IMG/VR virus record: IMGVR_UViG_2778261642_000006
Strand: one strand, 5' to 3'
DNA: 42,980 nt
Origin: a virus
Lineage: Duplodnaviria > Heunggongvirae > Uroviricota > Caudoviricetes
In this document: piece by piece, positions 8,202 to 8,997 of the stretch
Numbering within the stretch: position 1 is the stretch's first letter
How the letters are laid out: each line of letters begins with the position of its first letter
Program-made: the position numbers and the translations under genes
The notes under the pieces: model-generated
Told to the model about the DNA's origin: nothing
What the model saw: the letters and a program-made list of their open reading frames with translations, nothing else
The model's database searches: none

Positions 8202-8502
8202 AGGATGCTCCTTCTGTTTGATTGCATAACGAAAAACGCCTCGAGTGAAGCGTTATTGGTATGCATATAAAAAGGCCCTCACACTGGAGGGCAAAGAAGA
8301 TTTCCAATAATCAGAACAAGTCGGCTCCTGTTTAGTTACGAGCGACATTGCTCCGTGTATTCACTCGTTGGAATGAATACACAGTGCAGTGTTTATTAGT
8401 ATGCCTGTCTTTTAACCACATCAGGCTCGGTGGTTCTCGTGTACCCCTACAGCGAGAAAAATAGTAAAATCCTCTTACCCCTACAGTAAGAGAGTGATTT
8501 AT

Positions 8503-8997
8503 ATGTCTGATGAAAAAGGAATAATAAGTAGGATTACAGATGCAGTTTCTGGTGCCGGAGGTGCTCTGATGAGTGCTGTTGGCGCAGTAAAGGAAATCCA
8601 GAAAATGCAAATAGACTACTCAGTAAAAGAAAAAACATACGAACTTGTCGATAAGCTCATGGATGCCCAACAGCAGCAAATGTCACTTAATGAGCTTTTG
8701 ATGATTTCTAAGGACAAGATCATTGAGCTTGAAGAAAAGATAAATCGAGCCTCTAAGTGGGAAGAGGAAAAGAAAAACTATGAGATGTATACACCTACTG
8801 TTGCTACGGTGGTTTATCGTCTCAAAAAATCGGCAAATACCGGTCAGCCAATGCACTATCTTTGCGCTCAATGCTATGAATCTTCTGTGAAATCCATACT
8901 TCAATACGAAGGATTTGCACCACCTTCTAACCATAGGATGAGATGCCATAGGTGTAACGCCTCCTATCTGTTCCCTAAATCTGCATTTTCTAAATAA
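8503..8997 (+). CDS. Hypothetical coiled-coil protein with C-terminal zinc ribbon, opposite strand to the pL operon
   Basis: 164 aa from [29 protein letters not shown]…; C-terminal CAQC…CHRC; RBS AAGAGAG; preceded by a repeat-rich 300-bp region. Confidence 0.6.

Follow-up and report, generated by a model that had tools for sequence, protein, structure and literature searches.

The gene that lies opposite to the pL operon in this prophage is very probably rip1, coding for a functional Rip1 that acts as published, which makes it a prophage-encoded, single-gene abortive-infection defence. The DNA that was analysed, called the window here, is a stretch of 42,980 nucleotides. It is a P22-like prophage with an integrase, HK022-type immunity and P22-type head genes. 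The interval under study, 8202..8997, consists of a 301-bp intergenic stretch and one plus-strand open reading frame (ORF), with these coding features:

8503..8997, plus strand: rip1 coding sequence, 164 aa, with the ATG at 8503 and the stop codon ending at 8997
8488..8494, plus strand: Shine-Dalgarno-like AAGAGAG, 8 nt 5' of the rip1 ATG, read from the sequence

A GTG-extended form of the ORF starts at 8494. The ORF list holds no co-oriented partner for rip1, which leaves it as a single gene, prophage-borne.

BLASTP was used to compare the window protein with gp37 of phage HK446 (AFH20665). The two have the same length and are identical at 163 of 164 residues, and the sole change is H96Y, with Y in the window. 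A phmmer search of the PDB sequences matched entry 9OOX at E 1.4e-105, a profile search gave E 7e-83, and the AlphaFold model of the window protein matched 9oox_M in Foldseek with E 3e-18 and a target-normalised TM-score (TMt) of 0.76 over 126 columns. The title of that entry is 'Cryo-EM structure of the Escherichia phage HK446 Rip1 in complex with the Enterobacteria phage T6 small terminase', and the molecule is named 'ring interacting pore 1 (Rip1)'. An earlier note on this DNA, made from the letters of the sequence, had guessed that the gene is exclusion or defence cargo and had suggested remote-homology and structure-prediction searches as a check. Both kinds of search returned 9OOX, and the guess is borne out by the near-identity to HK446 Rip1, an experimentally characterised antiphage protein. 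Judged by its sequence, this is a known gene, and its product is in effect the published Rip1 protein.

With the Rip1 structure solved and the mechanism published, the identification carries little weight as a discovery. Its value is in annotation, because 'hypothetical protein' labels for rip1 can now be corrected. In the genome record of HK446 it is entered as HK446_037, hypothetical protein; the RefSeq label is 'hypothetical protein' in all of the E. coli matches listed; and several phages likewise have rip1 as 'hypothetical protein' in GenBank. Searches of Pfam and NCBIfam with the rip1 protein and the diverse family members that were tested gave sub-threshold hits only, and no model. In PADLOC-DB v2 (2023), a library older than the description of Rip1, the best hit was PDC-M53B at E 0.019 and 12.8 bits. 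The rip1 protein does match phrog_1244 (E 4e-53), which is listed with function unknown and which also holds HkaP of phage HK620.

The protein begins with a Gly/Ala-rich amphipathic segment, continues with a helical hairpin and ends in a four-cysteine beta domain. Residues 7-24 have both the top hydrophobicity (0.34-0.40) and the top hydrophobic moment (0.42) within the protein, a weak sign in keeping with an amphipathic helix that could insert into a membrane. AlphaFold predicts helices at 7-16 and 19-34, with pLDDT < 50 there, then helices at 39-57 and 62-90, followed by the small beta domain. The cysteines of C121-x2-C124 and C148-x2-C151 are invariant among the 21 homologues that were aligned. 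The first description from the DNA, a 164-aa protein with a Gly/Ala-rich N-terminus and a CxxC...CxxC pattern, is accurate for the ORF at 8503..8997.

The family is large. A family profile search found 2955 clusters (50% identity) at E <= 1e-3, and 1382 at E <= 1e-10. Nearly all of the clusters are about 150-175 aa long, and the twelve that were inspected share the architecture. A search of genome contigs with the family alignment gave 5 loci. Alignment column 96, where the window protein departs from that of HK446, varies in the family, and Y is also found there in P0001, which with 176 member sequences is the largest of the close E. coli clusters. Since this column is variable in the family, Y96 in place of H96 may have an effect on the trigger range.

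The work on Rip1 (Patel et al., Nature 651:1060, 2026) is summarised in section 5 of a review (PMC13434031). According to the review, Rip1 was discovered in a prophage of Pseudomonas aeruginosa; Rip1 alone is non-toxic, and inner-membrane integrity is lost in infected cells that have Rip1. Escapers were in the portal for Pseudomonas phages or in the small terminase for E. coli phages. By cryo-EM, 12 Rip1 monomers sit around an 11-mer small-terminase ring; the C-terminal half touches the ring, and the N-terminal part is an amphipathic helix. The assembly is described as a pore and released dye from liposomes, and oligomerisation-deficient terminase mutants failed to activate Rip1. The review also has Rip1 homologues widespread in Proteobacteria and mainly prophage-borne. 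Sensing of the small terminase by Rip1 is likewise stated in a conference report and in the Avs2/Upx paper. According to the review, the founding member from Pseudomonas aeruginosa has the family name and the proposed sensor-plus-pore mechanism in common with the window protein, and differs in the place of its gene, which is flanked by the genes for the small and the large terminase, and in that escape from it maps to the portal.

Another reading was weighed, in which a coiled coil with a zinc ribbon makes a regulator of the DksA/TraR/TFS kind, binding RNA polymerase or nucleic acid and acting on transcription. One family member hits TFS (E 6e-4; 20 bits, where the cut-off is 65) and also GreA, both sub-threshold, and the window protein and HkaP have weak Zn_ribbon hits, but all of these hits are far under the curated cut-offs. 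In the solved complex, moreover, the protein is arranged round a terminase ring and is named a pore, and leakage from liposomes is published. We therefore consider a transcriptional role extremely unlikely, and the candidate of a DksA-like RNA polymerase binder was dropped after the match to PDB 9OOX.

As a Rip1, the protein resembles Avs1-3 and TerI in that all of them detect conserved packaging proteins late in infection. The large terminase is what the Avs proteins sense, and these are large STAND NTPases with separate effector domains, whereas Rip1, at 164 aa, senses ring oligomers and is itself the effector.

The DNA in front of rip1 suggests how the gene may be expressed. A blastn comparison aligned 8402..8487 of the window with lambda 34396..34481, the 86 bp directly upstream of lambda sieB, at 87% identity. 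The annotation of P22 could also be mapped onto the window, which gives the following features:

8440..8470, plus strand: sieB-type promoter span, mapped by alignment from the P22 'sieB promoter' (BK000583, 29690..29720)
8477, plus strand: inferred transcription start, 7 nt after the -10, mapped by alignment from the P22 'sieB RNA start site' at 29727
8443..8452, plus strand: first copy of ACCCCTACAG, overlapping the -35 region
8477..8486, plus strand: second copy of ACCCCTACAG, beginning at the inferred +1

The -10 element is TAAAAT at 8465..8470, which is nearer to consensus than the TAAACT of P22, and the -35 near 8440..8447 is weak. A consensus promoter scan did not call the span at 8440..8470, because its -35 is poor. 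The only plus-strand call of the scan, 8498..8525, was rejected because it spans the start codon. The earlier note had placed the gene in the sieB/ral neighbourhood of lambda, opposite to pL, with a likely promoter of its own that is active in the lysogen. The homology of the upstream DNA to the lambda and P22 sieB leaders confirms the neighbourhood, and as aligned rip1 sits exactly in the sieB cassette slot of lambdoid phages. Likewise, homology to the promoter and RNA start that the P22 record gives for sieB supports a promoter for rip1 of the lysogen-expressed sieB type. Together, the slot and the promoter offer a testable picture of how enterobacterial rip1 genes are expressed: in the sieB slot, behind the sieB promoter.

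A gene in this slot might be expected to be a SieB-type superinfection exclusion protein, either as a divergent sieB allele or through SieB-like action. SieB of lambda and P22, a prophage-expressed exclusion protein of abortive type, shares with rip1 its cassette position, its orientation and its promoter leader, and the HK620 homologue is annotated 'putative superinfection exclusion protein'. The proteins themselves are unrelated, however. The window protein has no hit to PF14163, against which lambda SieB scores 1e-29 in Pfam; it aligns with P22 SieB at a BLASTP E of 0.93; and it is Rip1 but for one residue. On the first two results membership of the SieB family is refuted, since there is no sequence relation, and the wider notion of SieB-like action is highly improbable.

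What rip1 shares with sieB seems to be the cassette. In phages the leader precedes sieB, hkaP or rip1, and from this homology the promoter cassette upstream of rip1 is generic, not rip1-specific. Among 5426 complete E. coli genomes, the sieB-type leader was found in 988 (1072 places) and this rip1 allele in 96; all 100 rip1 copies in these 96 carriers are chromosomal. HkaP of HK620 (AAK28864) has phrog_1244, a length of 164 aa, the slot and the CxxC...CxxC pattern in common with the window protein, and its leader is 99% identical to that of the window up to the ATG, but the protein is 27% identical. By this comparison HkaP seems to represent a second class of alleles within the family.

Other relatives are placed in a similar way. 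For HK446 Rip1, 115 bp of upstream leader are 100% identical; its gene is on the opposite strand and abuts the 3' end of N. Homologues from prophages of Proteus mirabilis and Pantoea dispersa are 45-63% identical, with the same position and orientation. In Proteus, Pantoea and HK620 alike, the homologue is an opposite-strand gene of the early-left region, with the repressor gene to one side and the recombination genes to the other. An annotated N is one or two genes away in Pantoea and HK620, and the adjacent Pantoea gene has an N_peptide domain.

From the published work and the sequence context, we propose the following mechanism for the window. The sieB-type promoter would drive rip1 rightward, opposite to the pL operon, with the start near 8477, and the protein would be expected to be present in the lysogen. 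By analogy with the HK446 protein, it should be harmless until ring oligomers of an invader appear late in superinfection. These trigger rings would be the small-terminase 11-mer, as in the E. coli phages tested, or the portal, as in Pseudomonas phages. The C-terminal four-cysteine domain would bind round the ring, so that about twelve copies assemble, and the N-terminal amphipathic helices of the assembled Rip1 would make a pore in the inner membrane. The cell would be lysed or depolarised before progeny are completed. Rip1 would thus be sensor and effector in one protein.

The 300 bp upstream of the gene had also been described in the earlier note as a repeat-rich control region with a 10-bp inverted repeat and a doubled direct repeat. 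Both repeats are present, far above chance. The window holds exactly two copies of the direct repeat ACCCCTACAG, at 8443 and 8477, where 0.03 is expected, and at 88% identity the repeat can be lengthened to 16 nt. For the inverted repeat GTGTATTCA...TGAATACAC, at 8355..8382, the search gave 1 match against 0 expected in shuffles. By blastn against lambda, the region 8178..8502 resolves into three lambda pieces. The first, 8178..8264, is the start of cIII and the cIII-ea10 spacer; the second, 8265..8397, is the ea10-ral spacer (lambda 33923..34055, 97.7% identical); the sieB leader follows. The lambda genes ea10, ral and orf28 are absent in the window, and likewise in HK620. The features of this region are:

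8031..8201, minus strand: cIII, the left neighbour in the pL operon, assigned by position and by DNA homology to the lambda/HK620 cIII region
8235..8254, minus strand: pL-operon terminator, equal to HK620 tL2B (terminator scan, HK620 annotation, alignment)
8275..8292, minus strand: pL-operon terminator, equal to HK620 tL2A (terminator scan, HK620 annotation, alignment)
8345..8392, no strand assigned: long inverted repeat or hairpin with 22-nt arms, in the lambda ea10-ral spacer at about 34003..34050

The cIII ORF at 8031..8201 had no hit in Pfam, and a search of 7900..9900 against Rfam gave chance-level hits only. Because the hairpins at 8235..8254 and 8275..8292 correspond to tL2B and tL2A, they serve the leftward pL transcript and not rip1. 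On the minus (pL) strand, 8345..8392 folds into a 14-bp perfect stem (-24.9 kcal/mol, z = -6.4) with no U-tract. Its sequence is identical in lambda and differs by one base in HK620.

These repeats could in principle be a dedicated operator for a regulator of rip1. They are far above chance, and with the promoter (8440..8470) and RNA start (8477) carried over from P22 sieB, the two copies of ACCCCTACAG fall on the -35 region and on +1, an arrangement typical of repressor or activator sites. Yet lambda, P22, HK620 and the window all have both copies unchanged, whichever gene follows (sieB, hkaP or rip1). Starting 50-95 bp ahead of the promoter span, the inverted repeat is part of the ea10-ral spacer and makes a very stable RNA hairpin on the pL strand. 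The spacer sequence upstream of rip1 is common to hundreds of phages without rip1, and we know of no regulator for these repeats. A dedicated operator is accordingly unlikely. The idea of a gene-specific control region was not upheld, since the sequence is a lambda spacer with tL2A/tL2B, the ea10-ral hairpin and a generic sieB cassette. As aligned, the upstream 300 bp is a generic sieB promoter cassette together with the terminators and hairpin of the convergent pL transcript, and is probably no dedicated operator region.

A shorter hairpin was also observed at 8472..8492 (7 bp, CTCTTAC-CCCTACA-GTAAGAG). It spans the inferred rip1 start and contains the second copy of the direct repeat. It is found in the rip1 and hkaP version of the leader, and its flanks differ in the lambda/P22 sieB version. 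On the minus strand ATTTTACT comes next after the hairpin, which has a terminator-like score there.

On the other side of rip1, the window shows a junction between different sources. The features there are:

8990..9067, minus strand: fossil 3' end of a lambda-type N, 78 nt (25 codons and the stop), overlapping the rip1 stop
9094..9111, both directions: bidirectional hairpin terminator with a 7-bp stem, 5 GC pairs and T-runs in both directions
9113..9556, minus strand: 147-aa ORF (phrog_13686), the first gene after pL/putL, in the place of HK022 nun
9637..9699: putL, mapped from phage O276
9715..9743: pL, mapped from phage O276
9818..10525: cI, mapped from phage O276
10605..10835: cro, mapped from phage O276

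As blastn against lambda and HK446 and the translations show, the N fragment ends in 24 residues that match the C-terminus of HK446 N without a difference. It is taken as a fossil because nothing of N lies upstream of it. In a phage that uses HK022 put-RNA antitermination, this fossil marks the recombination junction by which rip1 arrived. The homology to HK446 and vB_EcoP-720R6 stops at 9067. From about 9057 to 9710 the window matches Wanchaivirus PDP110P2, a stretch that contains the 9094..9111 terminator and the 147-aa ORF, and HK022 immunity runs from 9576 on. HK446 itself differs here: an intact N overlaps the rip1 stop and there is no terminator, whereas the window has the 78-nt fossil, then the bidirectional terminator and the HK022-type immunity region.

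The gene had been thought in the earlier note to be insulated from the pL operon by a terminator at this end. The hairpin at 9094..9111 is real, with a folding energy of -13 to -15 kcal/mol. It belongs, however, to the neighbouring 147-aa module and is absent from HK446 and vB_EcoP-720R6, where rip1 overlaps the 3' end of N. From these alignments, the terminator is a feature of the mosaic junction and not of rip1 loci generally.

The 147-aa ORF at 9113..9556 had no Pfam, NCBIfam, PADLOC or PDB sequence hit. Its AlphaFold model is confident (pLDDT 85, four strands and three helices), and Foldseek found no match for the model in the PDB. A homologue in Salmonella prophages lies just after N in the pL sense. 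The nun gene of HK022, whose place the ORF takes, is an exclusion gene. The ORF itself is an uncharacterised early-left accessory gene.

A prophage that carries Rip1 also makes rings of its own. Among the genes of the window are those for a small terminase of Sf6 type (22701..23129) and a portal of P22 type (24543..26741). By analogy with P22 sieB, the cassette might provide Rip1 with a built-in self-immunity switch, in which antisense pL transcription shuts rip1 off on induction. In the lysogen, the promoter at 8440..8470 would drive rip1. On induction, the put-antiterminated pL transcript would run antisense through rip1 and its leader, and would include both ACCCCTACAG elements and the hairpins at 8472..8492 and 8345..8392. 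With rip1 shut off, the terminase and portal rings of the prophage itself would not trigger suicide. The precedent is the sas/Esc logic at P22 sieB, which has an internal-start Esc product (BK000583 annotation) and, according to reviews, an antisense sas RNA. The available secondary texts do not describe such a switch for Rip1. The convergent layout and the sieB precedent make antisense shut-off of rip1 plausible, and we offer the switch as a speculative idea which is more probably wrong than right by a wide measure. In a weaker variant of this self-immunity idea, the common Y96 allele may shift the set of phage rings that are recognised.

The question of self-triggering may be moot in this prophage because of a nonsense codon in its large terminase gene. 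The gene (Terminase_3, 23126..24541, plus strand) has an in-frame TAA at 24212..24214, codon 363, where Sf101 has CAA, and the frame runs about 108 codons past the TAA. Read at face value, the prophage is probably packaging-defective, unless the TAA is a sequencing error. The presence of rip1 in a prophage with a large-terminase nonsense codon is relevant to why a crippled prophage might be kept.

Three further observations were made elsewhere in the window. An ORF of 159 aa at 21481..21960 (plus strand) carries a domain resembling Tad2 (Thoeris anti-defence 2; PF11195, E 6e-22), with the lysis-region ORFs on one side of it and the small terminase gene on the other. Adjacent genes for tRNA-Asn(GTT) and tRNA-Thr(TGT) lie at 19613..19768 (plus strand) in the late regulatory region. 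An IS605-family TnpB, with OrfB_IS605 and Cas12f1-like TNB domains, follows the tailspike gene at 41850..42980 (plus strand) and reaches the right edge of the window.
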